A stretch of DNA of 64,000 nt from contig JABCTC010000018.1 of assembly GCA_018238545.1 (NCBI GenBank), forward strand, positions 6,310 to 70,309, read 5' to 3'. Of the stretch, positions 5,686 through 60,123 are shown in pieces. Origin of the DNA: Candidatus Heimdallarchaeota archaeon (lineage in GTDB: Archaea; Asgardarchaeota; Heimdallarchaeia; Heimdallarchaeales; Heimdallarchaeaceae). The notes beneath the pieces are model-generated. The model saw only the letters and a list, made by a program, of their open reading frames with translations. It made no database searches and was not told the origin of the DNA. Made by a program: the position numbers and the translations under genes. The first letter of the stretch is position 1, and each line of letters starts with the position of its first letter.

Positions 5686-6618
5686 ATGAGGAATATCATA
5701 GAGTTTTTATATCTATATTTTGGTGTTTACTTGATACATGTGTCAATCGATGATTATTTAGATACCTTGCTTTCTGGTAGTTCTGAACCTACTAGTAAAG
5801 CAATCAAGAAATTGACAAAACTTCTCGAGAATTTCGGAGCTATTATGGTTGCTTCTACCGAGAGGATGGAGGATTATATTACCGGTTTAGATTCACGAAT
5901 TACCACAATTGAGAGAGATTTAGGCGTTTCCTCTGGATCTACTTTAACAAATTCAGCTCCTGCAAGAGCTCCTGCAAGAGCTCCTGCAATGGCTAATCCC
6001 ACTCCAGCTGCAGCCCCTTCAACGGGTGCTCCAAACCTTTCTGCAGCTCCAAACCTTTCAGCTGCACCGGCGATGGGTGCACCAAACCTTTCTGCAGCTC
6101 CAAATCTTAGTAGTGCTCCTTCTGGTGGAGGAACAGCTGCTCCTGCTCCAGCGCCTAGTAGTGGAGGAGGGGGGATTTCAAGTACTGATTTAATGAAAGC
6201 AGCTTCAGGCTTAACAAAAGCTCCTGAACAACAACCAAAAGAGATGGTTGACGCAGCTTCACTCAGTCCATCGGGAGTTAGTGTTACAGCTATTCAAGAT
6301 GTTAAAGCAGGATTGAAGAAAGTAGACCAAGATGAACATAGAAAAGAAAGAGCTGCAGCGGCTTCTGGCGGATCTAGTGGTTCGATGCCCGCTTCTATGG
6401 TTCTAAACATGGAGGTTAAAGATGCTTTAGCGAAGAGAAAATCACGTTCTAAAAAAGCTGATGATGATGAAGATGAAGAAGATGATTTTGCTCCAACTCA
6501 AGCTGCTCCCGCTGCGCCTAAACGCTCAACAAAACAGATGAAAGAAGCACTACAAGGAGAATTACGAAACGCCTTTAGTAGTTTACTTGAAAGTGATACA
6601 CAAGAAGAAGAAAAGTAA
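5686..6618 (+). CDS. Low-complexity Ala/Pro-rich protein with WH2-like motif(s), basic region and acidic C-terminal tail (VCA-like)
   Basis: Residues 90-160 are Ala/Pro/Asn/Leu/Ser repeats (APARAPAR, APNLSAAPNLSAAP x3). Residues 199-214, SVTAIQDVKAGLKKVD, match the WH2 consensus (LLxxIxxGxxLKKV). A weaker copy is STDLMKAASGLTK. A basic stretch KRKSRSKK is followed by ADDDEDEEDDFAP. The start is uncertain; the first Met sits in a hydrophobic stretch. Confidence 0.55.
   Translation: MRNIIEFLYLYFGVYLIHVSIDDYLDTLLSGSSEPTSKAIKKLTKLLENFGAIMVASTERMEDYITGLDSRITTIERDLGVSSGSTLTNSAPARAPARAPAMANPTPAAAPSTGAPNLSAAPNLSAAPAMGAPNLSAAPNLSSAPSGGGTAAPAPAPSSGGGGISSTDLMKAASGLTKAPEQQPKEMVDAASLSPSGVSVTAIQDVKAGLKKVDQDEHRKERAAAASGGSSGSMPASMVLNMEVKDALAKRKSRSKKADDDEDEEDDFAPTQAAPAAPKRSTKQMKEALQGELRNAFSSLLESDTQEEEK
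5957..6130 (+). repeat. Tandem nucleotide repeats encoding the Ala/Pro-rich region
   Basis: Direct repeats gctcctgcaagagct x2 and gctccaaacctttctgcagct(c/g)c several times. Local GC is well above background. Confidence 0.7.
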
Positions 6619-46243: not shown

Positions 46244-49200
46244 TTAATTTCTTCTTTTTCTTAAAGCAAAAGTTAGAGCTAGAAGTGTAAGTACAGAAGC
46301 GAATAGAAAAATACTCGATTGGTTAGTGTCTTCAGGATGATCTTCTGGATCGGTAGGATCGGTACCATAAGTAAACAATTCTTCACTATCACTCCAACCA
46401 TCACCATCAGTATCAGAATTGTTGGGATTAGTGTTTTGATAATACTCGTCTAAATTGGTTAAAGTATCACCATCAGGATCGTAACCTGCATCATTGACTG
46501 AAGGATCAAGGCCATTATCGACTTCCCAACCGTCAGGCATGCCATCGTAGTCAGAATCAGTGCTATTTGGGTCAGAATTGTAAGAATATTCTTCGAGATT
46601 AGTCAAACCGTCACCATCAAGATCTGAAGAAGCATCAGAAGGATTTAATGGGTCAAGACCATTATCATATTCCCAACCATCGGGCATCAAATCATCATCA
46701 GTGTCACTGTCGAGAGGATCTGTATTAGTATTCATATATTCCTCGTAGTTAGATAAACCATCCGCGTCAGGATCTTCACCACCATCATGAACAAGAGGAT
46801 TTGTGCCATATTCAACTTCCCAGTCATCCCACATCGAGTCATAATCTGTGTCCCAATATTGAGGATTAGTTCCATGAGTATATTCTTCAAGGTTAGTCAA
46901 TGTATCGCCATCAGGATCTAAAGCAGAATCATCGGATAAAGGATTGAGACTATTGTCGACTTCCCAGCCATCAGGCATCAAATCATCATCAGAATCGGAA
47001 TCTTGAGGGTCAGTACCAATGGTATATTCGTCCAAATTATACAATCCATCACTATCAAGGTCAGAATATGCATCATCAACCAAAGGGTTGAGAGTGTTAT
47101 CAACTTCCCAGCCGTCAGGCATGGAATCACCATCTGTGTCGTCGTTATTTGGATCAGTGTTATTAGTATATTCTTCAAGGTTAGTCAATGTATCGCCATC
47201 AGGATCTAAAGCAGAATCATCAATCTCAGTATTCAGTCCATGTTGGTCTTCCCAGATATCATTCATTCCATCGTTATCAAAATCGTAAAATGAGGGATAA
47301 TCAGTGTTATCAGTAGGGTCAGTACCAAGTGTAACTTCTAAACCATCATTAAATCCATCATCGTCTGAATCAGTATCTAGAGGATAAGTACCAATAGTAT
47401 ATTCTTCAAGATTAGTTAAATCATCACTATCAGGATCTAAAGAAGAATCATCAACGAGAGGATTAAGACCGTTATCAACTTCCCAGCCGTCAGGCATGGA
47501 ATCACTATCTGTATCACTATCATTTGGATTAGTTCCCCAAGCAATTTCTTCATCATCCAAAAGCCCATCATCGTCTGAATCAGCGTCATTTGGATCAGTG
47601 TCATTAGTATATTCTTCAAGATTAGTTAAATTATCACTATCGGAATCTAAAGAAGAATCATCAACAAGAGGGTTGAGGCCGTTATCTACTTCCCAGCCAT
47701 CGGGAATTAAATCATTGTCTGAATCAGCGTCATTTGGATCAGTGTTATTAGTATATTCTTCGAGATTGGTTAAATCGTCACTGTCTGGATCTAATGAAGC
47801 ATCAGAAGCATCTAGTGGGTTAAGACTATTATCAACTTCCCAGCCATCTAGCATTAAATCATTGTCTGAATCAGCGTCATTTGGATCAGTGTCATTAGTA
47901 TATTCTTCAAGGTTGGATAAACCATCACTATCGGAATCTAAAGAAGAATCATCAACAAGAGGATCGAGACCATTATCAACTTCCCAACCATCAGGCATCA
48001 AATCATCATCAGAATCAACGTCATTTGGATTAGTTCCAGCTACTACTTCTTCATTATCTAATAGTCCATCACCGTCTGAGTCTGGGTCGAGAGGGTCGGT
48101 GCCCGCAGTATATTCTTGAAGATTAGTCAATGTATCGCCATCAGGGTCTAATGCAGAATCATCAACAAGTGGGTTGAGACTATTGTCCACTTCCCAACCA
48201 TCAGGCATGCCATCGTCATCTGAGTCGGAATCATTGGGGTCGGTTCCAGCTGCTACCTCTTCATTATCAAGTAGTCCATCATTGTCGGAATCATTATCGT
48301 TTGGATCAGTATCATTAGTATATTCTTCAAGGTTAGTCAATGTATCGCCATCAGGATCTAAAGAAGAATCATCAACAAGAGGATCGAGACCATTATCAAC
48401 TTCCCAACCATCAGGCATCAAATCGTCATCAGAGTCGGAATCTTGAGGGTCAGTACCATTAGTATATTCGCCTAAATTGTCCAAACCATCACTATCAGGA
48501 TCTAAAGAAGAATCATCAACTAAGGGATTAAGACCATTGTCCACTTCCCAATTATCTGGCATCAAATCATCGTCAGAATCGTTGTCATTGGGGTCGGTAT
48601 TATTTGTGTATTCTTCGATATTGGTTAAACCGTCACCATCTGGATCTAAAGAAGAATCATCAACTAAAGGATCGAGACCATTGTCGACTTCCCAGCCATC
48701 GGGCATTAAATCATCATCAGAGTCATTATCATTGGGATCTGTTCCTTGAATATATTCACCATAATTATCCAAACCATCACTATCAGGATCTAAAGAAGAA
48801 TCATCAACCAAAGGATTAAGGCTGTTATCAACTTCCCAGCCATCAGGCATCAAATCGTTGTCTGTGTCATTGTCGTTTGGATCGGTTCCAGCTACAATCT
48901 CTTCATTATCTAAGAGTCCGTCATCATCAGAGTCATTGTCATGGGGGTCAGTGTTATTTGTATATTCTTGGAGGTTGGTCAGACTATCTCCATCAGGATC
49001 TAAAGCAGAATCATCAACGAGAGGATCGAGACCATTATCGACTTCCCAACCATCGGGCATGGAATCGCTATCTGTGTCATTGTTGTTAGGGTCTGTTCCA
49101 TATAGATATTTTTCTTCTCTATCATCTATCCCATCATTATCTGTATCTATTACGTTCAATGGGTAGAGGTCTACTCCGTTTCCTGGACCGCTTATTGCAT

Positions 49201-50593
49201 AAGTTCCTGTTTCATTCCAATTTGACCAATAATTTCCTTCATTTGTATTCACGTCATACCAAGTATTTACTGTATCACCGTACGCTTGTGAATCTTGCCC
49301 TATACTGTTGTTTATGAAGATATTATGATATATTCTGTTAGGGTTGGAACCGCCTAAATATAATCCATAACCATATTCCGATACTTCATTATAATTGTTT
49401 ACAAAAATATTGTTAGTTATATTGGAATAACTTGCCCAAAATGTATGTAGTCCATATCCATTGTTCTTACTACATGTATTATTATCAATGATAGAATAAT
49501 AAGGACCTAAGATATATATTCCAGCGTTGCTGTTATTCTCACAAGTATTATTTGTAACTACATTACTTGAATACCTAAGATACATTCCATAGATGTCGTT
49601 GTTATTGCAAGTGTTGTTGGTTACAGTTGTAGAATCAGATTCATAGACATATATCCCTGAATTGTCATTATTTGCACAGGTATTGTTCGCAACATTTGTA
49701 TTTGCAGCATATTCAATATAGATTCCATTCACATTTCCTGTACAAGTATTTTCTGCAACAGTTGGAGAAGAAGAAGCTTCAGCAATATGAATTCCGTTAT
49801 TACCGTTGTTCTCAATAGTATTGTTTCTTATTTCAGGATAAGCTGTCCAACGAATTCGTAGCCCATACCCAGTATTTTCTGAACAGGTATTGTCAGTCAC
49901 AGTTGCATTATTACCATTATAATCGATATATATACCTAGAGCATTACTTTCACAAGTATTGTTATCAATGATTACTGATGCACTATTATAACTGTATATT
50001 CCATTGCCTGAATTGTTTGAGCATATGTTGTTTGTTATGGTAGAATTAGTTGATTTCCATAGAACAATACCATCAGTATTGTCTGTACATACATTCCCGT
50101 CAATTGTAGTATTCAGACTTTGCAGTATGTACATTCCATATTGAGCATTATTTGCACAAGTATTATTTATTACTTTAGCTGTTCCCGCAGCAACACCAGT
50201 GATACGTATTCCATAGTTCAATCCATCTAAATAATTATCACGAATAACAAAATGCATTGTCGTACCTGTAACGTAAATAGCTGTGTCGTCAGTTGTTGTA
50301 ATGTTATAATTATTTATTATATACGGATCACCTTCACTTCCATCCCCTGAAGTACTAGAAGCTGCCAAAGTAGCATTATTCCATATATAAATATCTTCTG
50401 TAAGTTCTACGTAAGCCATCTTATTATAGTCTTGATCGTTAGGCATGTATACTTCACTATCAAAACTAGGTTCTACTGTGCTTGTATTAACCAAATTGAA
50501 ACTGATTGCAACACTCATAACTAAGCACAAAGCCAGAAAAATTGAAACTCCTTTTTTATAGGATCCAAAATATTTTTTTAAATTATTTATCAC
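46244..50593 (-). CDS. Giant cell-surface protein: signal peptide, right-handed beta-helix (NosD/pectin-lyase-like) domain, about forty EF-hand-like Ca-binding repeats, C-terminal TM anchor
   Basis: N-terminal hydrophobic signal (ISIFLALCLVMSVAISF). Residues 100-470 have repeated NNTC.(N)N..GIYI beta-helix rungs. Residues 480-1410 are tandem units of about 45 aa alternating DSDDDLMPDGWE and DPDGDGLTNLEEY, each fitting the 12-residue EF loop D-x-D-x-D-G-x-x-x-x-x-E. C-terminus SSIFLFASVLTLLALTFALRKRRN. Confidence 0.85.
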   Translation of the reverse strand: MINNLKKYFGSYKKGVSIFLALCLVMSVAISFNLVNTSTVEPSFDSEVYMPNDQDYNKMAYVELTEDIYIWNNATLAASSTSGDGSEGDPYIINNYNITTTDDTAIYVTGTTMHFVIRDNYLDGLNYGIRITGVAAGTAKVINNTCANNAQYGMYILQSLNTTIDGNVCTDNTDGIVLWKSTNSTITNNICSNNSGNGIYSYNSASVIIDNNTCESNALGIYIDYNGNNATVTDNTCSENTGYGLRIRWTAYPEIRNNTIENNGNNGIHIAEASSSPTVAENTCTGNVNGIYIEYAANTNVANNTCANNDNSGIYVYESDSTTVTNNTCNNNDIYGMYLRYSSNVVTNNTCENNSNAGIYILGPYYSIIDNNTCSKNNGYGLHTFWASYSNITNNIFVNNYNEVSEYGYGLYLGGSNPNRIYHNIFINNSIGQDSQAYGDTVNTWYDVNTNEGNYWSNWNETGTYAISGPGNGVDLYPLNVIDTDNDGIDDREEKYLYGTDPNNNDTDSDSMPDGWEVDNGLDPLVDDSALDPDGDSLTNLQEYTNNTDPHDNDSDDDGLLDNEEIVAGTDPNDNDTDNDLMPDGWEVDNSLNPLVDDSSLDPDSDGLDNYGEYIQGTDPNDNDSDDDLMPDGWEVDNGLDPLVDDSSLDPDGDGLTNIEEYTNNTDPNDNDSDDDLMPDNWEVDNGLNPLVDDSSLDPDSDGLDNLGEYTNGTDPQDSDSDDDLMPDGWEVDNGLDPLVDDSSLDPDGDTLTNLEEYTNDTDPNDNDSDNDGLLDNEEVAAGTDPNDSDSDDDGMPDGWEVDNSLNPLVDDSALDPDGDTLTNLQEYTAGTDPLDPDSDGDGLLDNEEVVAGTNPNDVDSDDDLMPDGWEVDNGLDPLVDDSSLDSDSDGLSNLEEYTNDTDPNDADSDNDLMLDGWEVDNSLNPLDASDASLDPDSDDLTNLEEYTNNTDPNDADSDNDLIPDGWEVDNGLNPLVDDSSLDSDSDNLTNLEEYTNDTDPNDADSDDDGLLDDEEIAWGTNPNDSDTDSDSMPDGWEVDNGLNPLVDDSSLDPDSDDLTNLEEYTIGTYPLDTDSDDDGFNDGLEVTLGTDPTDNTDYPSFYDFDNDGMNDIWEDQHGLNTEIDDSALDPDGDTLTNLEEYTNNTDPNNDDTDGDSMPDGWEVDNTLNPLVDDAYSDLDSDGLYNLDEYTIGTDPQDSDSDDDLMPDGWEVDNSLNPLSDDSALDPDGDTLTNLEEYTHGTNPQYWDTDYDSMWDDWEVEYGTNPLVHDGGEDPDADGLSNYEEYMNTNTDPLDSDTDDDLMPDGWEYDNGLDPLNPSDASSDLDGDGLTNLEEYSYNSDPNSTDSDYDGMPDGWEVDNGLDPSVNDAGYDPDGDTLTNLDEYYQNTNPNNSDTDGDGWSDSEELFTYGTDPTDPEDHPEDTNQSSIFLFASVLTLLALTFALRKRRN
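46360..49160 (-). repeat. Tandem coding repeats (thrombospondin-type-3-like / EF-loop calcium-binding units)
   Basis: About 20 near-identical units of about 135 nt. These produce the spurious Ser-rich antisense ORFs on the + strand (47496..48119 and others). Confidence 0.8.
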
Positions 50594-50840
50594 TAAATAT
50601 TCCCCTTTTTAAAGCAATTAGATTATCTTTGAAGTTGCTATTTAAGTATATTGAATTGTAGTTACACAGATTTAGAATTAATACACAAATTTAGTGTAAA
50701 TTATTCTAAAACAAATTTAAACAACAGCCAATGAAGACGCTAGCCTTATAAGTTTTTCAAATTCTCTAACTTCATGAGGGGTTATTTTGTACAAAACTAT
50801 AAAAGTTGAGGTCTTTTTATAAGAAAATTAACATAGAAGA

Positions 50841-52067
50841 ATGATGTTAATTAAAGGGAAAGAATCAGCAAAATGGATAGAAACAACCATCCCTTTAATA
50901 CTTAATCCAGGAACAACAAAGCAGCTTTATTTGCAGAAAGCTCAAGCTAAGATCCTAGCTTTCGCTAAACAGTTGCTACCTTTTAAACAGCATAGTGCTT
51001 CAGCTCTACACTTCCACCATCTGGTCTATACAAAGTTCAAGTATCTAGGCATACAAAGTCAAGTACAAGAAGCGGTGCAGCGGAGAGTGTATGCAGCAAA
51101 ACGAGCGAAAACGTTCGCTCATCTACCTATGGAATTTAATTTTCCGCGGAGTGGGAGGCTCATTCTCTCCAAGAGAGGGAACGCACTTGTTAAACTCTCT
51201 CCTCTCAAACAACGTATAGCCGTACCTATCTTGATGAACGGTGGGTGGAGAAGAGTGGAAGAGCACAGAAAAGGAGGGTGGGAGGCTCACAGCTGTAAAG
51301 TGTTCAAAAGAAAACGTATCTGGGTTATGCATCTTATCATGCGTAAAGCACTCCCACTTCCCCAAGAAGTGGAAGGAACCATCGGTGTGGACATAGGAAG
51401 AAAGATCATGGCAGCAATCACGGTCAATCATCCTAATTTTCCCTTTGTTGAACAATATCTTGGGAAAGATCTGGCGTGGAAACAACACCAGTTCTATAAT
51501 CGTAGAAAAACCTTGCAAAAATATGCTGCGCAAGGAGATAGACGTGCACGGCGTGCACTCAACAGATTACGAAGAAAAGAAACAACTTATGTTCAAACCC
51601 GTTGTGCTCAACTAGCACACGAAATAGTAGACTTAGCTGTAATCACCCGTTCAGCTATAGTTTTGGAAAATCTTACGCATTTACGAAGAATGTGGACAAA
51701 ACAAGCGATGAAACGAAAGAGAGGAGGGAAGAAGACCAGACGTGCACTCAATCGCTGGTCATACAGTCTCTTTCATACTACTTTGACTCGAGTAGCACAA
51801 TTACACCATGTTCCTGTGGTATTTGTCCGTCCGCAATATACCAGTCAAACCTGCTCACAGTGTGGACATCGAAGTAAGAACTCACGAACCACTCGTGACC
51901 TATTTAGGTGTGTCAATTGTAATTTCACTGTTAACGCTGACCGCAATGCATCACGTAACCTAGCACTGCTAGGGCAAGTAGTTTTTGGTCTCCCCTTCTT
52001 CAATGCTTATCGATCTTTCCTTCCCGTTCCTACTGAGCGAAGAATCCTGCGTTCTTCAGTATCTTAG
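50841..52067 (+). CDS. tnpB: TnpB (IS605 OrfB-family RNA-guided nuclease-like transposon protein)
   Basis: RuvC-I IGVDIGRKIMAAI (Asp), RuvC-II AIVLENLTHL (Glu), a zinc finger CSQCGH...CVNCNF, and RuvC-III NADRNASRNLA (Asp). All catalytic residues are intact. Confidence 0.85.
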   Translation: MMLIKGKESAKWIETTIPLILNPGTTKQLYLQKAQAKILAFAKQLLPFKQHSASALHFHHLVYTKFKYLGIQSQVQEAVQRRVYAAKRAKTFAHLPMEFNFPRSGRLILSKRGNALVKLSPLKQRIAVPILMNGGWRRVEEHRKGGWEAHSCKVFKRKRIWVMHLIMRKALPLPQEVEGTIGVDIGRKIMAAITVNHPNFPFVEQYLGKDLAWKQHQFYNRRKTLQKYAAQGDRRARRALNRLRRKETTYVQTRCAQLAHEIVDLAVITRSAIVLENLTHLRRMWTKQAMKRKRGGKKTRRALNRWSYSLFHTTLTRVAQLHHVPVVFVRPQYTSQTCSQCGHRSKNSRTTRDLFRCVNCNFTVNADRNASRNLALLGQVVFGLPFFNAYRSFLPVPTERRILRSSVS

Positions 52068-52150
52068 GCTAAGGTGCGCTCACCCACCTTCTATGGCGCG
52101 ATGAAAGTTCAATCCCTGTTGATTGACTTGAGTGCAAGAGAAATGTATAA
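52030..52150 (+). ncRNA. Candidate omega-RNA (reRNA) scaffold at the tnpB right end
   Basis: It overlaps the 3' end of tnpB and extends about 80 nt. Two short hairpins are visible by eye. GC content reverts to background at about 52150. Assignment is by analogy to characterised TnpB systems. Confidence 0.35.
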
Positions 52151-52579
52151 ATGCAAATTTGTACAAAAATCAAGTTGATGAGCTATGAAATCTTAGATAT
52201 AGATCTAGAAAGCATAGATGACGACTCGTTGGAACTTATTGTAGATTATCTGAAAAAAAGTGAAATACAGGAATATCCTAAGGATCCTGTTCCTCCACGT
52301 GAAGCAATGCTTAAAGACATCAAACTAAAGCGAGAAGGAAAAGATAGTTTTCTAAGTGTTGTTTTGGATAAAAAAAGAGGACAAATCATAGCTAGAGCAA
52401 CAATTTCTGTGAAATTAGAAAATCACGTTGCATATAATCAAGCGAAGCATGTAGCAGATTTTGATCTAACAGTTTTGAAAGATTTTGTTCATTTAGAAAT
52501 CATTGAAAAACTATTCACATCTGTAATCAGTAAAGTGGAAAATTATGATTTTATATTTAACTTCTACAGTTTCTCTTAG
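52151..52579 (+). CDS. Hypothetical small acidic protein
   Basis: 142-aa ORF directly after the IS end, with no motifs. It could be spurious. Confidence 0.25.
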   Translation: MQICTKIKLMSYEILDIDLESIDDDSLELIVDYLKKSEIQEYPKDPVPPREAMLKDIKLKREGKDSFLSVVLDKKRGQIIARATISVKLENHVAYNQAKHVADFDLTVLKDFVHLEIIEKLFTSVISKVENYDFIFNFYSFS

Positions 52580-55342: not shown

Positions 55343-57121
55343 TTACTTCTTCTTGGTTTTAGGTTTAGCTGTAGATTTCATCTTACTGTTAATAAGAGTA
55401 ATAGTTAACAAGAAAAATATCAGTTGTGAACCTAAAACAATTCCAGAAAAGATTAGTAACTCACCAATTTCGAGTGAAGCGAAGATACCAGTAGAAGTTT
55501 CTTCTATAACTTCAACAAACTCAACATTAGAGACAAGACTGTCTCCGTATTCATTTATAGCTACAATGGCGTAATAATAGTAACCGGTTGCATTAACAGT
55601 ATCAGTATAAGATGCAGTAGTAGAAGTATCTATTGGTGTTAATCCTGAAACTGAGGAGAATTGAGATGTTTCTCTAAATATTTCATAATTTGTTGCATCT
55701 TGTACTGATGACCAGCTCAAAAAAATATTTCCAACAGAGATAGGGTTTGGATTTATCTCATCTAAGACGGGTTGTATAGGAGTTCCTACGAATTTCTTGT
55801 AGAAAAGATCATTATCTGCACCTGAACCTAATAAACTTGGATCATTATCGAGGAAAATCGTATGCACATGACCTAAAGAATCAACTGCTAAATCTGGGTA
55901 GAAAGAACTAGCTATGTGGTTGTAAGTAAGAATAGCTAAAGAAGACCAAGTGTGTGTATTTAAATCAAGATACTTGAATAAGATATTATTACCTGTACCT
56001 CCTCCACCAACATCTGTAGTATCTTCCCAAATAACATAAATACTATTTGTACCGTCAACATCAACTTCTGGACGAAAAGCAGTTCCTGTACTCTCTGTTG
56101 AAACAATGTCTGATATTGACCATGAATCAAGACTGGAGTCATAGCTCTTATAGAAAATATCAGCGTCAGTTCCTGCTCCTTCATAATCTGAATAGTCGTA
56201 CCAAACAATGTGAATCATACCATCTACTCCTTTAGAAAGACTAGGTGATGCAGATGTGCTATCACTTTCGGAACTTATTAATTTTAAAGGAGACCAAGTA
56301 ATGAGATCTTTGTCCAGTTGTCGATAAAATACATCTTGGTCAGTACCAGCTCCTAAAACATCTGAGAGATCATTCCAAGCTATTATTACGTTTTCTTGTG
56401 AATCAAGTTGTATTTCTGGATTATATGCAGATTGTATACTTAAATCCGTAACTATTTCAGCTGCGGACCAAATCCCTACTGCAGATCTATGTTTGTAATA
56501 AATATCTTGATCCCCATCAACGATTATGATATCTGCAAAATCCTCCCAAACAACATGTGTTACACCATTTGAATCAGCTACTATCGATACGTAAGTAGAT
56601 GTACTGTCACTTTCTACTGAAACAAGTTCAACTGCTCCCCATCCAGAAGAAGTTTTTCCCCTATAACAGATATCTCTATCAGGACCTGATCCCAAAATAT
56701 CATCTGATTCAAGCCATACTATATGTATTGAGCCTGCTGAATCAATAGCAATTTCAGACACTTCAGAAAAACTTGAACTACCAGTTGATACAAGTTCTAG
56801 TTCAGACCAGCTCTTAGTTACATAATCAAATTTCTTATAAAACACGTCTAAGTCAGTTCCTGCACTCAGAATATCTTCACCTGAGGAGGTTACTATGTGT
56901 ATATCATTTCTGTTATCAACAGCGATTCTAGAATAAGAATTAGGTGTATCAAATTCTGTGGAAATTAGTTCCAGTGGTTCCCACCACCAAGAAGATAGAT
57001 CTTTGTTATTTACAGATTGTTCTGTCATATTCTCATATATCATTGAGTTTGTTAACGAAGATATTGGAATTATCATTAACAACATTATCATAAAAATACT
57101 AGCAATTCTTTTCAATTTCAC
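55343..57121 (-). CDS. Surface protein: signal peptide, about 7 beta-propeller-like repeats, FN3-like domain, C-terminal TM helix + Lys-rich tail
   Basis: MKLKRIASIFMIMLLMIIPISS signal. Seven units of about 55 aa of the form W.xLElvStxS....S.iA.Ds.G.iHivW.d.sDiLGsGtD.DifYk. FN3-like segment PISVGNIFLSWSS...YEIFRET...YYYAIVAINEYGDS. C-terminus LLIFSGIVLGSQLIFFLLTITLINSKMKSTAKPKTKKK. Confidence 0.75.
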   Translation of the reverse strand: MKLKRIASIFMIMLLMIIPISSLTNSMIYENMTEQSVNNKDLSSWWWEPLELISTEFDTPNSYSRIAVDNRNDIHIVTSSGEDILSAGTDLDVFYKKFDYVTKSWSELELVSTGSSSFSEVSEIAIDSAGSIHIVWLESDDILGSGPDRDICYRGKTSSGWGAVELVSVESDSTSTYVSIVADSNGVTHVVWEDFADIIIVDGDQDIYYKHRSAVGIWSAAEIVTDLSIQSAYNPEIQLDSQENVIIAWNDLSDVLGAGTDQDVFYRQLDKDLITWSPLKLISSESDSTSASPSLSKGVDGMIHIVWYDYSDYEGAGTDADIFYKSYDSSLDSWSISDIVSTESTGTAFRPEVDVDGTNSIYVIWEDTTDVGGGGTGNNILFKYLDLNTHTWSSLAILTYNHIASSFYPDLAVDSLGHVHTIFLDNDPSLLGSGADNDLFYKKFVGTPIQPVLDEINPNPISVGNIFLSWSSVQDATNYEIFRETSQFSSVSGLTPIDTSTTASYTDTVNATGYYYYAIVAINEYGDSLVSNVEFVEVIEETSTGIFASLEIGELLIFSGIVLGSQLIFFLLTITLINSKMKSTAKPKTKKK

Positions 57122-57291: not shown

Positions 57292-59076
57292 TTACTTTTT
57301 CTTCTTTCCTGTTTTAGGTTTGGACGTAGATTGAATTTTACTATTAATAAGAGTAATAGTTAGCAAGAAAAATATCAGTTGTAAGCCTAGAACAATTCCA
57401 GAAAAGATTAGTAACTCGCCAATTCCGAGTGAAGAAAAGATACCTGTAGAAGTTTCTTCTATGACTTCAACAAACTCAACATTTGAGACAAGGCTTTCTC
57501 CGTATTCATTTGTCGCTACTACAGCGTAATAATAGTACCCGGTGGCATTAACAGTGTCAGTATAAGATGTTAATGTAGAAGTGTCTATTGCCGTCAATCC
57601 TGAAACTGAGGAGAATTGAGATGTTTCTCGATATATTTCATAATTTATTACATCTTTTGCTGATGACCAGCTCAAAGAAATATTTCCAATAGAGAGAGGA
57701 TTTGGGTTTATTTCAGCTAAGATTGGTTGCATAGGTGTTCCTACAAATTTCTTGTAAAAAAGGTCCCAATCTGAACCAGAGCCTAGTAAACTTCCATCAG
57801 TATCAAGAAAAATAGCATGAACATGTCCTAAGGAGTCAACTGCTAAATCTGGATTAGTAGAAGCAGATGCATGATCATAAGTAAGAATAGTTCGAGAAGA
57901 CCAAGTGTGTGTATTTAAATCAAGATACTTAAAAAAGATATTAGTACCAATACCCACGCCACCAACAGCTAAAGAATCTTGCCAAATAACATAAACATAT
58001 TCTGTACCATAAACATCAATCTCTGCATTAAAAGAACTTCCAGTATTCGCGGTTGAAACAACTTCCGTGACGGACAACGAATCTAGATTGGAATCATAAT
58101 ACCTATAGAGAATATCAGAGTCAGTTCCTGAGCCCAAGATATCAGAAGAATCTTGCCAAACAATATGGAGCTGACCTTCTACACCTTTAGAGATTTTAGG
58201 TCCTGTAGAGCTGAGATCACTTCCAGAACTAATTAATTTAATGGGAGACCAAGTGATGAGGTCTTTATTCAGTTTTCGATAGAAAACATCTCCGTCAGGA
58301 CCAGAACCTAAAATATCTGTGAGATCATACCAAACAATAAAAATATTTTCTTGGGAATCAAGTTGAATATCTGGATTATATGTGGAAGATGTACTCATAT
58401 CAGTAACTATTTCAGCTGCTGACCATATTCCTGCTGCAGATCTATGTTTGTAATAAATATCTTGATCCCCATCAGCAATTAAGTAATTTGCAAAATCCTC
58501 CCAAATCACATGTGCGACACCATTTGAATCAGCTATAATCGCTAAGTAAGTTGATGTACTGTCACTTTCTGTTGAAACAAGTTCAGTAGATCCCCATCCA
58601 GAAGAAGTTTTTTGCCTATAACAGATATCTCTATCGGTACCTGAACCCAAAATGTTATCTGATTCAAGCCAAGCTATATGTACGGTTCCCGATGGATCAA
58701 CTGCAATTTCTGATACTTCAGAAGCACCCGAACTATCTGTTGAAACAAGTTCAAGTTCAGACCAGCTCTTTGTCTCATAAATATATTTCTTATAAAAAAC
58801 ATCTCTATCAGTTCCTGCACTCAAAATATCATCAGTGGAGTAGGTTATAACATGTATATTATTCTGGATATCAATAGCAATTTTAGGTACATAATTATTG
58901 GCATCAGATTCAGCAGAGAGAAGCTCTAAGGGTTCCCACCACCAAGAAGATAGATCATTATCAATTACGTTCTGATTTGTCATATTATCATAAATCTTTG
59001 AGTTTGTTAACGAAGAAATAGGAATTATCATTAACAACATTAGCATAAAAACACAAGCAATTCTTTTCACTTTCAC
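57292..59076 (-). CDS. Surface beta-propeller-repeat / FN3 / TM-anchored protein (paralog)
   Basis: Same architecture as 55343..57121 and about 70% identical. Ends ...LINSKIQSTSKPKTGKKKK. Confidence 0.75.
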   Translation of the reverse strand: MKVKRIACVFMLMLLMIIPISSLTNSKIYDNMTNQNVIDNDLSSWWWEPLELLSAESDANNYVPKIAIDIQNNIHVITYSTDDILSAGTDRDVFYKKYIYETKSWSELELVSTDSSGASEVSEIAVDPSGTVHIAWLESDNILGSGTDRDICYRQKTSSGWGSTELVSTESDSTSTYLAIIADSNGVAHVIWEDFANYLIADGDQDIYYKHRSAAGIWSAAEIVTDMSTSSTYNPDIQLDSQENIFIVWYDLTDILGSGPDGDVFYRKLNKDLITWSPIKLISSGSDLSSTGPKISKGVEGQLHIVWQDSSDILGSGTDSDILYRYYDSNLDSLSVTEVVSTANTGSSFNAEIDVYGTEYVYVIWQDSLAVGGVGIGTNIFFKYLDLNTHTWSSRTILTYDHASASTNPDLAVDSLGHVHAIFLDTDGSLLGSGSDWDLFYKKFVGTPMQPILAEINPNPLSIGNISLSWSSAKDVINYEIYRETSQFSSVSGLTAIDTSTLTSYTDTVNATGYYYYAVVATNEYGESLVSNVEFVEVIEETSTGIFSSLGIGELLIFSGIVLGLQLIFFLLTITLINSKIQSTSKPKTGKKKK

Positions 59077-59180
59077 TGTAATTCACCAAATACAACTGTA
59101 ATGTTCTTAATCTATAAATATTCTGCAAAACTTTGGGAAAAACATATAATCGGCTATTTAATGGATTAGTTTGAAAGAAA

Positions 59181-59611
59181 ATGAGCGTCAAAAAGGAAAT
59201 TTCTTTTCCTATATGGTCATCCGTTATGATTTTAGAAATGATAATTATGATGGTTCAAGCCATAATATTTGGTTCGTTAATATACATTATTCCTTGGTGT
59301 TGGTGTATAATACAACCACTTCCAATTCCAGCTGTTCTTCAAATCATTGTTACAGACTGTCTCGCAATTTCTATATTTCTTATATTTGTTATCTACTCTC
59401 GAAGGGGGGTTTTCCTCAAAAAAGTCTATATGGTCTGTTGAGATTACTTAACATCATTTTCAGCGTAGTTCTAACAATTTGTTTCTTCATTGATATTCAA
59501 GGATTTGAATTACACCTGAGTGGATATTTACTTGTATATTCTCTTCCCTTTTGTTTCGTGATACCTCTAATATCATTGGTTTTACTACTAAAAAGCAAGA
59601 AGAAAGCTTGA
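59181..59611 (+). pseudogene. Small polytopic membrane protein gene disrupted by a frameshift in a G6 tract (paralog of 59683..60123)
   Basis: The N-terminal half reads in frame 0 (MSVKKEISFPIWSS...VIYSRRGVF-stop) and the C-terminal half in frame 2 (...GGFPQKSLYGLLRLLNIIFSVVL...LLLKSKKKA). Both halves align to the intact paralog (MSFLVWSS...IFYSRKTYFPNLRLYVLLRIINIIVSAIL...FLIKSKNTD). The frame switch is at gggggg, 59404..59409; inserting one G restores a single ORF. Confidence 0.55.
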
Positions 59612-59682: not shown

Positions 59683-60123
59683 TTGGTAAATATGAACGAA
59701 AGAACAGAGATGTCGTTCCTTGTTTGGTCATCTTTTATTGTATCAGAAATGGTATTCATGATCCTTCAATCTTTTATATTTCCACTATCAATTACTGGAA
59801 TTTTAATTTGTTCATGCCTTCGATTTGATTTCATCTTTTCCTATCAAATTTTCATAATCATAATTGATATTCTTATATTCTCAACATTCTGTTTTGCTAT
59901 ATTTTACAGTAGAAAAACATACTTTCCAAATTTGAGATTATATGTTTTATTGAGAATAATAAACATAATTGTAAGTGCAATATTATTGGGTATCTTCCTC
60001 TGGGTTATACGAAATAAAATACTATCTTTGACTGATTATATTCTTACATTTTCTTTGATTTTATGCTTCTTAATGCCCCTCTTAACATTGATATTTCTAA
60101 TTAAAAGCAAAAATACAGATTAG
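59683..60123 (+). CDS. Small polytopic membrane protein (4 TM), intact paralog
   Basis: 146 aa with four hydrophobic segments and a Lys-rich C-terminus. Confidence 0.55.
   Translation: MVNMNERTEMSFLVWSSFIVSEMVFMILQSFIFPLSITGILICSCLRFDFIFSYQIFIIIIDILIFSTFCFAIFYSRKTYFPNLRLYVLLRIINIIVSAILLGIFLWVIRNKILSLTDYILTFSLILCFLMPLLTLIFLIKSKNTD

Follow-up and report, generated by a model that had tools for sequence, protein, structure and literature searches.

A tnpB-only insertion sequence in a Heimdallarchaeia genome: boundaries, target motif and predicted omega-RNA

Does a tnpB gene that stands without a transposase in the genome of an Asgard archaeon belong to an intact mobile element, and if so, where does that element begin and end, what does it encode and how are its sites chosen? 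The question is posed by a 64,000-nt stretch of Candidatus Heimdallarchaeota archaeon (assembly GCA_018238545.1, contig JABCTC010000018.1, forward-strand positions 6,310 to 70,309), referred to here as the window, to which all coordinates belong. The first-pass annotation of this stretch had recorded a solo, IS1341-like tnpB of recent acquisition with a structured 3' tail. The locus holds a genuine, intact TnpB/omega-RNA insertion sequence, a kind of element that is already well known; what is newly worked out for it are the ends, the target and the RNA structure. Taken as a whole, it is very probably a non-autonomous, Heimdallarchaeia-resident OMEGA insertion sequence, whose 1404 bp comprise its own promoter, tnpB and the RNA scaffold.

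The limits of the element were set by comparing 25 copies from Heimdallarchaeia assemblies (16 genome-assembly loci, 8 metagenome loci and the window copy), together with the empty sites of related strains. The copies sit in mutually unrelated neighbourhoods but share the same ends. On the left, similarity starts at TCATG(A/G) in all 22 non-redundant junctions, and the sequence upstream is unrelated. On the right, it stops at ..TTGTACAAAAATCAAGT(T/C)GAT, with the 19 right ends diverging after ..GTTGAT and the first flanking base being G in 14 of these 19 copies. Each of the 18 complete copies measures 1401-1606 bp and codes for tnpB alone. The insertion and its immediate surroundings are delimited as follows.

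50774..52177, + strand: inserted DNA, 1404 bp, from the empty-site comparison
50772..50775, + strand: TCAT, invariant left-flank target and candidate target-adjacent motif (TAM), at 22/22 junctions and also in the empty sites
52178..52579, + strand: remnant of a GNAT acetyltransferase gene, 133 codons, with a 645-bp deletion near 52545 and the GNAT domain gone

Exact-protein look-ups of the neighbouring genes returned only sister assemblies with the element at the same site, and four sister assemblies carry it there. A homologue search with the 133-amino-acid open reading frame (ORF) downstream returned nothing, this ORF being the deletion remnant. With the 341-amino-acid form from locus L037 as the query, many full-length Heimdallarchaeial homologues (341-355 amino acids, aligned from residue 1) were found, and these led to the empty sites. 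GNAT orthologues 91% and 94% identical lie on element-free contigs (L104/L105 and L106/L107), where the site reads ..GCCTTATAAGTT(T/C)TTCAAATTCT(C/T)TAACTTCATGAG(C/T)TATGAAATC.., and the precise empty-site sequence of the window insertion is AACTTCATGAGCTATG. Because the empty-site contigs align with the window up to 50778 and resume from 52172/52178, the inserted length is 1404 bp. The 5-bp repeat ATGAG (50774-78 and 52178-82), of which the empty site has a single copy and the window two, leaves the register ambiguous; equivalent coordinates are 50776..52179, directly after TCAT, or 50779..52182. The target in the window reads TCATGAG, in which TCAT and the next bases form the palindrome TCATGA (50772-50777).

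Given that the carriers L001, L037 and L038 are 98.5-99.8% identical to the window, as against 87-93% in the flanks of the empty-site strains, the sequences point to a lineage-specific and fairly recent insertion. The first-pass description thus holds in its essentials: the insertion codes for tnpB alone, it is a fairly recent, lineage-specific insertion for which related strains have an uninterrupted site, and the comparison across Heimdallarchaeia assemblies yielded 25 copies with conserved ends rather than a single degraded relic. Two candidate target duplications were rejected. The 11-nt repeat TTTGTACAAAA, which brackets the GC-rich block, is part of the element ends in every copy, and a classical duplication of 5-7 bp is contradicted by the start of the left end, which is constant within a subfamily at different sites.

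Heimdallarchaeia (Asgard) assemblies are the source of all 16 genome-collection loci and of the named close homologues; among them are the complete genomes of Ca. Heimdallarchaeum aukensis and endolithica. An exhaustive HMMER scan of 1.84 billion representatives returned 7879 TnpB-like proteins at E<1e-3, only 37 of them below 1e-30, and the next relatives outside the family cluster are 34-40% identical. Among phages, plasmids and viral contigs, considered as a transfer vector, the closest matches were at most 32% identical. The GC (guanine plus cytosine) content is 42.4% in the element, 34.2% in the window and 34.4% in the 6 kb flanks, an excess of 8 points. Every copy in every host exceeds its flanks in GC (by 4-11 points), which marks the excess as a trait of the family rather than a sign of foreign origin. 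The first-pass annotation had estimated the difference at about 15 points and had read it as horizontal origin; a difference of 15 is obtained only against the adjacent intergenic DNA (26-29% GC), and the horizontal reading is not supported, given the excess in all hosts and a family that was met in Heimdallarchaeia alone.

Recent movement of the family is shown by two copies that are 99% identical (L013 and L014) and occupy different sites in one complete genome, that of Ca. H. endolithica. Elsewhere, a single copy from this species (L016, CP084167) combines the left flank of one Ca. H. aukensis copy with the right flank of another (L015 and L017, CP084166), the two aukensis copies being inverted relative to each other and about 17 kb apart; this exchange of flanks suggests an inversion by recombination between two copies. 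At L002, a second, unrelated tnpB (310-1569; 419 amino acids, PF01385 and PF07282) lies 3.4 kb upstream of the family member.

The TnpB protein and its predicted guide RNA

The coding part of the element is described by three features.

50841..52067, + strand: tnpB, 408 amino acids, from Pfam, NCBIfam, alignment, AlphaFold, Foldseek and substitution rates
51390-92, 51666-68 and 51939-41, + strand: RuvC triad D184 (GVDIG), E276 (VLENL) and D367 (NADRN), from the alignment
50816..50822, + strand: TTTATAA, likely tnpB TATA box, about 25 nt before the start codon

The protein matches Pfam PF07282 (Cas12f1-like TNB domain) at 1.1e-18, with 67.6 bits against a cut-off of 26.3, and the NCBIfam family NF040570, 'RNA-guided endonuclease TnpB family' (guided_TnpB), with 128.6 bits against a curated cut-off of 100. 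In an alignment of 17 sequences, comprising the window protein and 16 homologues, the invariant columns include D184, E276 and D367 as well as C338, C341, C357 and C360 of the zinc finger, which confirms the intact RuvC triad and the CxxC..CxxC motif that had been read from the 408-residue sequence. The RuvC-III sequence NADRN (residues 365-369) fits the NADXN motif that defines the 'derived TnpB' major clade, to which most Cas12s belong (Altae-Tran et al. 2023, PMC10691335). By sequence, the nearest solved relatives are CnCas12f1 (8hr5, 1e-18) and AsCas12f (8j1j, 1e-16), followed by a TnpB (9nzp), and the Cas12f matches found by phmmer range from 1e-18 to 1e-14. The AlphaFold model, built on the same alignment, has a mean predicted local distance difference test (pLDDT) score of 83.9, with disorder only at residues 1-7 and 392-408. 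Searched against the PDB with Foldseek, it recovers full-length AsCas12f, OsCas12f and CnCas12f (E of about 1e-21 to 1e-17, template-modelling score of about 0.55) and next the ISFba1 and ISDra2 TnpBs; the top matches are Cas12f/TnpB ternary complexes (E 1e-21 to 1e-9, 414-443 aligned columns). The model therefore predicts a TnpB/Cas12f fold across the whole protein.

The ratio of nonsynonymous to synonymous substitution rates (dN/dS) of tnpB between copies is 0.12-0.24, and the family is under purifying selection. We are highly confident that the element encodes a functional RNA-guided nuclease module under selection, with cleavage predicted from the sequence. The putative TATA box of tnpB reads TTTATA(A/G) in 20 of 24 copies and TTATATA or TTAAATA in the other four. 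Its distance of about 25 nt from the ATG implies a leaderless tnpB mRNA; in archaea, the TATA box of a leaderless mRNA usually lies at about -26.

The remainder of the element is occupied by the RNA scaffold, which shares the last 39 nt (13 codons) of tnpB and extends as far as the element's right end.

52029..52179, + strand: omega-RNA scaffold, about 150 nt, from covariation and a covariance model
52029-36 with 52062-68, + strand: helix P1, from RNAalifold
52039-45 with 52051-57, + strand: helix P2, from RNAalifold
52071-76 (AAGGTG) with 52085-90 (CACCTT), + strand: helix P3, from covariation
52096-99 with 52132-35, + strand: helix P4, from RNAalifold and covariation
52106-13 with 52122-28, + strand: helix P5, the TCAATC/GATTGA hairpin
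52145-49 with 52160-64, + strand: helix P6, free of covariation
52180..52199, + strand: predicted guide segment GAGCTATGAAATCTTAGATA, placed directly 3' of the conserved right end

From the last 230 nt of 16 copies, RNAalifold derived these six helices with 35 pairs, 17 of which show compensatory changes. Paired cells amount to 93.9% on the predicted structure, compared with 37-54% after a shift of the partners by 1-3 columns; covariation scores 0.424, compared with at most 0.127 in these shifted controls, and the observed values were reached by 0 of 500 column shuffles. A covariance model built from the 16 copies (R1) scores the held-out copies L021, L023 and L024 at 155, 141 and 129 bits and a truncated fourth held-out copy at 94 bits, and it finds a single match in the window, at 52025..52179. 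At the loci of more distant TnpBs, the model gave no significant match, and no Rfam family matches the scaffold. Covariation and the held-out matches together bear out the proposal that the 3' region forms an omega-RNA scaffold, and by comparative sequence analysis the 3' tail is identified as such a structured RNA. Regarding the two hairpins originally drawn in it, the second (TCAATC/GATTGA) is real and corresponds to P5, whereas the first (GGTG/CACC) had been placed in the wrong register, covariation giving AAGGTG/CACCTT instead. A pseudoknot seen by eye between the P3 region and a downstream GCGC was rejected; GC(G/A/T)C pairs with G(T/A)GC at 52132-35, as P4, in both RNAalifold and the covariation analysis. 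Because longer TnpB homologues read on through the overlap region and this part of the protein is disordered in the AlphaFold model, the sequence of the TnpB tail is probably constrained by the RNA.

By analogy, the guide would be taken from the flank right after the right end, and the predicted segment is flanking DNA that makes up codons 1-7 of the GNAT gene. No other TCAT-adjacent match to it with four mismatches or fewer was found in the window. In four copies (window, 52194-52198; L003; L005; L019), TAGAT is found 14-17 nt beyond the right end; all three complete copies of the window's subfamily are among them, and the reading frame of the pentamer differs. Its position is roughly that of the end of a 16-nt guide, and it could reflect either chance or an additional target preference.

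The guide position, the identity of the TAM, homing and mobilisation in trans are proposed here by analogy with characterised TnpB systems and with the work of Altae-Tran et al. (2023; PMC10691335). Transcription of the scaffold would run on into the flank, and the first 16-20 flanking bases (GAGCTATGAAATC... here) would become the guide. RNA-loaded TnpB would then cut TCAT plus the guide sequence, which corresponds to the empty or excised donor site, and recombination from an element-bearing copy would restore the element, a homing or retention mechanism as shown for ISDra2-type TnpB. The occupied site would be protected because its guide sequence is preceded by TTGAT instead of TCAT. Movement to new sites, which read TCAT followed by G(A), would need a transposase supplied in trans. 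In the window, the element landed on the GNAT start codon and split the gene from its putative TATA box, and in this lineage the gene later lost 645 bp.

Terminal repeats and mode of movement

How the element moves has to be judged from its ends.

50776..50800, no strand assigned: left terminal inverted repeat, GAGGGGTTA-TTTTGTACAAAA.., from left ends compared with reverse-complemented right ends in 18 copies
52155..52179, no strand assigned: right terminal inverted repeat, ..AAATTTGTACAAAAATCAAGTTGAT, conserved in 19/19 right ends

The two ends share the motif AT-CAACTTGA-TTTTTGTACAA in inverted orientation. The palindrome TTTTGTACAAAA of the left end lies at 50785-50796 and the palindrome core of the right end at 52157-52168; the distance from the junction AT to GTAC is 13 nt at each end, and the left and right ends co-vary beyond the core (L021; L009-11 and L020). 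The junction repeats range from 2 to 7 bp between copies, being ATGAG in the window, and together with the fixed left TCATG they fit either a target preference without duplication or a 2-bp duplication of AT. Junction microhomology beyond the ATG is slightly higher with a copy's own flank than with the flanks of other copies, a weak effect (P = 0.02-0.04). Away from the element ends, the end-core motif was seen in two places only, at L014 position 2245 and at L004/L007 position ~210-240, where an isolated ..GCATGCTTTTTGTACATTTTTT.. resembles a left end with a shortened spacer and may be a relic or chance.

Several results weigh against the interpretation of the locus as a working OMEGA insertion sequence. 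In place of the Y1 hairpins of IS200/IS605, the ends consist of imperfect inverted repeats, about 25 bp long, with a TGTACA core. The element contains no transposase gene, and its 1404 bp leave no room for one; among 20 further window ORFs, none matched Y1 (PF01797) or serine recombinase (PF00239), and no partner transposase stands beside two distant relatives (P0019 and P0021), both of which are solo tnpB genes. The 64-kb window contains no second copy of the element and no other tnpB homologue. Finally, the single-sequence fold of the window's 3' tail is no better than that of shuffled sequences (z = -0.83), so the evidence for RNA structure is comparative.

One account of movement, to which we give somewhat less than an even chance, places the element in the IS200/IS605 type (IS1341 group). 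A Y1 HUH TnpA encoded elsewhere would move it as single-stranded DNA and insert it 3' of TCAT without target duplication; the right end would terminate in ..TTGAT, and a circle junction would join ..AAGTTGAT to GAGGGG... The invariant left TCAT(G) beside a far less constrained right flank accords with this account, as does the start of the left end, which is constant within subfamilies across sites and argues that the junction repeat is not a classical duplication. According to the description of archaeal IS605/IS1341-type elements (PMC3119063), a palindrome close to each terminus, which may have the same sequence at both, is preceded by a stretch that varies, and the target measures 4-6 bp; the window element shows all three traits. 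However, its palindromes consist of A/T only around TGTACA, and as single strands the ends form weak folds (z-scores of +0.73 to -1.57), the ends of L021 and of L009-11/L020 are true inverted repeats rather than self-complementary sequences, the 13-nt symmetry from AT to GTAC is unexpected for IS200/IS605, and a Y1 gene was seen at none of the loci.

It is also possible, though rather doubtful, that the element is a double-stranded DNA transposon with terminal inverted repeats, which another transposase inserts into the palindrome TCATGA with duplication of the central AT. This would account for the ~25-bp imperfect repeats with co-varying ends and for the equal AT-to-GTAC spacing at the two ends. 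GA(A/G), which the right flank resembles, would complete the palindrome, with 44% cross-pair matches against a composition expectation that we ourselves estimate at ~28%. In addition, DDE-associated TnpBs have symmetric ends, Asgard TnpBs can associate with Cas1-like transposases, and solo TnpBs can be moved in trans (PMC10691335). Set against these points, the halves of the target are unequal, TC being present at 22/22 left junctions and GA at about half of the right ones, the junction repeats vary from 2 to 7 bp, and no candidate transposase was found; a DDE or Cas1 gene was found near none of the family copies. The empty-site sequence is compatible with single-stranded and double-stranded movement alike.

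The window copy is unlikely to be a stranded relic, in which an intact gene has become immobile for want of a transposase in the genome and is passed on by vertical descent only. A single copy in the window, the shared site in four sister assemblies, the lack of any transposase found and the report that archaeal tnpB genes are abundant with little recent mobility (PMC10691335) would all fit such a relic. Nevertheless, the ORF, both ends and the RNA are intact, the family dN/dS is far below 1, the insertion is missing from strains with 87-93% identical flanks, and another family member moved recently. Quite improbable, in our judgement, is that the family represents a Heimdallarchaeia-restricted class of tnpB-only elements outside IS200/IS605, moving as double-stranded DNA into TCATGA with AT duplication, carrying outward TATA boxes and owing its strict left TC to selection by the TnpB TAM rather than by the transposase. 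Host takeover, whereby the protein would have become a TldR-like RNA-guided regulator or a CRISPR Cas12f effector and ceased to be a transposon nuclease, is very improbable indeed: the nearest solved structures and sequences are Cas12f proteins and the predicted guide corresponds to the beginning of the adjoining gene, but the catalytic triad is intact, unlike in TldR, the copies occupy many unrelated neighbourhoods with conserved transposon ends, and the window has no CRISPR array, its sole tandem repeats being a 35-bp run of a 12-mer (5955-5989) and those of the surface-protein gene.

Target choice and the neighbouring genes

For the TnpB/omega-RNA insertion sequence favoured here, the site chosen in the window had consequences for the gene downstream.

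50746..50751, + strand: TTATAA, putative GNAT TATA box, about 26 nt before the start codon in the empty site

The insertion falls exactly on the ATG that is the native start codon of the downstream GNAT acetyltransferase gene (+ strand), whose putative TATA box now lies across the element from its gene. The full-length product of 341 amino acids is encoded at L037, itself an element carrier, and in all empty-site strains, and the 645-bp deletion is present in the window, L001 and L038. Since the deletion is confined to a subset of carriers, it came after the insertion, an order that fits decay following displacement of the promoter.

Target choice was analysed at 15 independent sites with both flanks. 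A gene starts exactly at the junction ATG, on either side, at 7 of the 15; the genes concerned encode Peptidase_M55, Memo, a PALP enzyme, Abhydrolase_3, a nucleoside deoxyribosyltransferase, a 311-amino-acid protein and GNAT. These are real genes, of which Peptidase_M55, Memo, PALP, Abhydrolase_3 and GNAT are matched from profile position 1 (Peptidase_M55) or over the entire protein; loci with a gene start at the junction include L003, L005, L010, L016 and L020. Among the remaining sites, one lies 3 nt upstream of a start, two at a stop codon and two within genes. In 167 kb of host background, the start-codon criteria apply to 5% of all TCATG sites and to 24% of the non-intragenic ones, whereas the observed proportions are 7/15 overall and 7/13 non-intragenic; the enrichment test (p = 0.008) used a count of 8/14, with L015 and L016 taken separately, and not the corrected 7/13. 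Start-codon targeting as a special mechanism was rejected, the pattern being mostly explained by selection against intragenic insertions, with a modest residue that is suggestive only. Because TCATGA holds ATG and TGA on both strands, surviving copies lie mostly at gene starts and stops, and the gene-edge pattern mostly follows from the motif plus selection against gene disruption.

Individual sites illustrate the range. At L011 (junction 3920/5343), an ORF resembling succinylglutamate desuccinylase/aspartoacylase is split between ..NIH and GSELHG.., and L014 interrupts a gene of more than 370 codons, 63 codons short of its end. At the right junctions of L008 and L020, the target TCA is the TGA stop, on the other strand, of a convergent gene of 572 and 356 codons, respectively; the L020 site is an ATGA stop/start overlap between two genes, and at L008 a new stop is supplied by the right end three codons on. 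Outward-facing TATA-like A/T boxes are seen at both ends of all copies (in the window, 50797-50805 on the bottom strand and 52146-52151), 22-32 nt from the junction ATG. They may be candidate promoters for genes hit at the start codon or just A/T-rich inverted-repeat sequence. If they do act as outward promoters, they would restart leaderless transcription of the genes hit, and the position of half of the surviving copies exactly on start codons would then be explained.

The first-pass annotation had also supposed that the element might affect the promoter of the large surface-protein gene on its left. This did not hold up. The gene starts at 50593, 248 bp from the tnpB ATG and about 180 bp from the left edge of the element (50772-50778). 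It has its own TATA-like box at ~50606-50616, beside its start and at least 155 bp from the element, and the intergenic sequence of the empty site is the same up to the insertion. The gene affected by the insertion is the GNAT gene downstream. The surface-protein gene (46244-50593) encodes 1449 amino acids with Beta_helix/NosD and TSP3 repeats, has ~40% GC and contains internal tandem repeats of 144 and 210 nt. It is itself a presence/absence variant, since it is missing from the L106/L107 lineage, where a citrate-transporter gene lies 163 nt from the GNAT gene (L106 4181-4345). Farther downstream, the window contains two tandem paralogue pairs: BNR-like surface proteins of 592 and 594 amino acids with a C-terminal membrane anchor (55343-57121 and 57292-59076), and two ORFs of 146 amino acids with no Pfam match (59171-59611 and 59683-60123).

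Significance and relation to known systems

The analysis provides a fully delimited TnpB/omega-RNA element, with its ends, empty site and candidate TAM, from the archaeal lineage closest to eukaryotes, and defines a covariation-backed RNA structure that is absent from Rfam. The compact nuclease of 408 amino acids is nearer to Cas12f than to the model TnpBs and under purifying selection, which makes it reasonable to test it as a small genome editor. With this family one can study by what route tnpB-only elements that end in inverted repeats move, and its insertions at start and stop codons show how the motif TCATGA by itself is able to direct surviving insertions towards the edges of genes. Existing knowledge of TnpB is not overturned, and none of the features would greatly surprise a specialist.

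Among known systems, the ISDra2-type TnpB/omega-RNA of IS200/IS605 offers several parallels. The nuclease of each is small, of the RuvC type, and contains both a D-E-D triad and a zinc finger; in both, a structured RNA overlaps the 3' end of tnpB and stops at the right end, with the flank supplying the guide (a prediction here); and an invariant short motif occupies the left flank where the TAM would be. In contrast, the identity of the window protein to ISDra2 TnpB is only ~10-13% in the Foldseek alignments, the RNA is different and matches no Rfam family, a Y1 TnpA is lacking, the ends are A/T-rich inverted repeats instead of hairpins, and the candidate TAM is TCAT rather than TTGAT. In terms of family definitions, neither the element nor the 20 window ORFs tested encode the Y1 HUH TnpA of IS200/IS605, and the element does not have that family's subterminal hairpins without inverted terminal repeats. 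The serine-recombinase TnpA of the IS607 family is likewise absent from the element and the ORFs tested.

Cas12f of type V-F (AsCas12f, OsCas12f and CnCas12f1) provides the best full-length matches in sequence and structure and shares the NADxN motif of RuvC-III. The window locus differs in having neither a CRISPR array nor a pair of trans-activating CRISPR RNA and CRISPR RNA, in drawing its predicted guide from the transposon flank, and in being mobile. Exapted TnpBs of the TldR kind are set apart by the intact RuvC triad of the window protein and by the unrelated contexts of the family. The TnpBs linked to DDE (IS630) or Asgard Cas1-like transposases (PMC10691335) resemble the family in their symmetric inverted-repeat ends, and the Cas1-linked groups occur in Asgard hosts; a further likeness is their solo tnpB copies, which share their ends with transposase-bearing elements and are moved in trans. 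On the other side, neither a DDE nor a Cas1 gene was seen close to any copy, the TA duplication of IS630 is lacking, and the conserved motif downstream of a hypervariable stretch that marks Cas1-linked loci is missing from the family.

The IS1341 group, as described in haloarchaea (PMC3119063), agrees with the family in carrying tnpB only, in its low copy number and divergent copies, in near-terminal palindromes identical at both ends with a variable stretch between terminus and palindrome, and in a short, specific target. That group is described as lacking inverted terminal repeats, whereas the window family has repeats of ~25 bp with co-varying ends, and its palindromes are too weak for stable hairpins. 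The label IS1341-like, given by the first-pass annotation, is therefore appropriate operationally, for a tnpB without tnpA, while the ends themselves are inverted repeats and not hairpins of the IS200/IS605 type.

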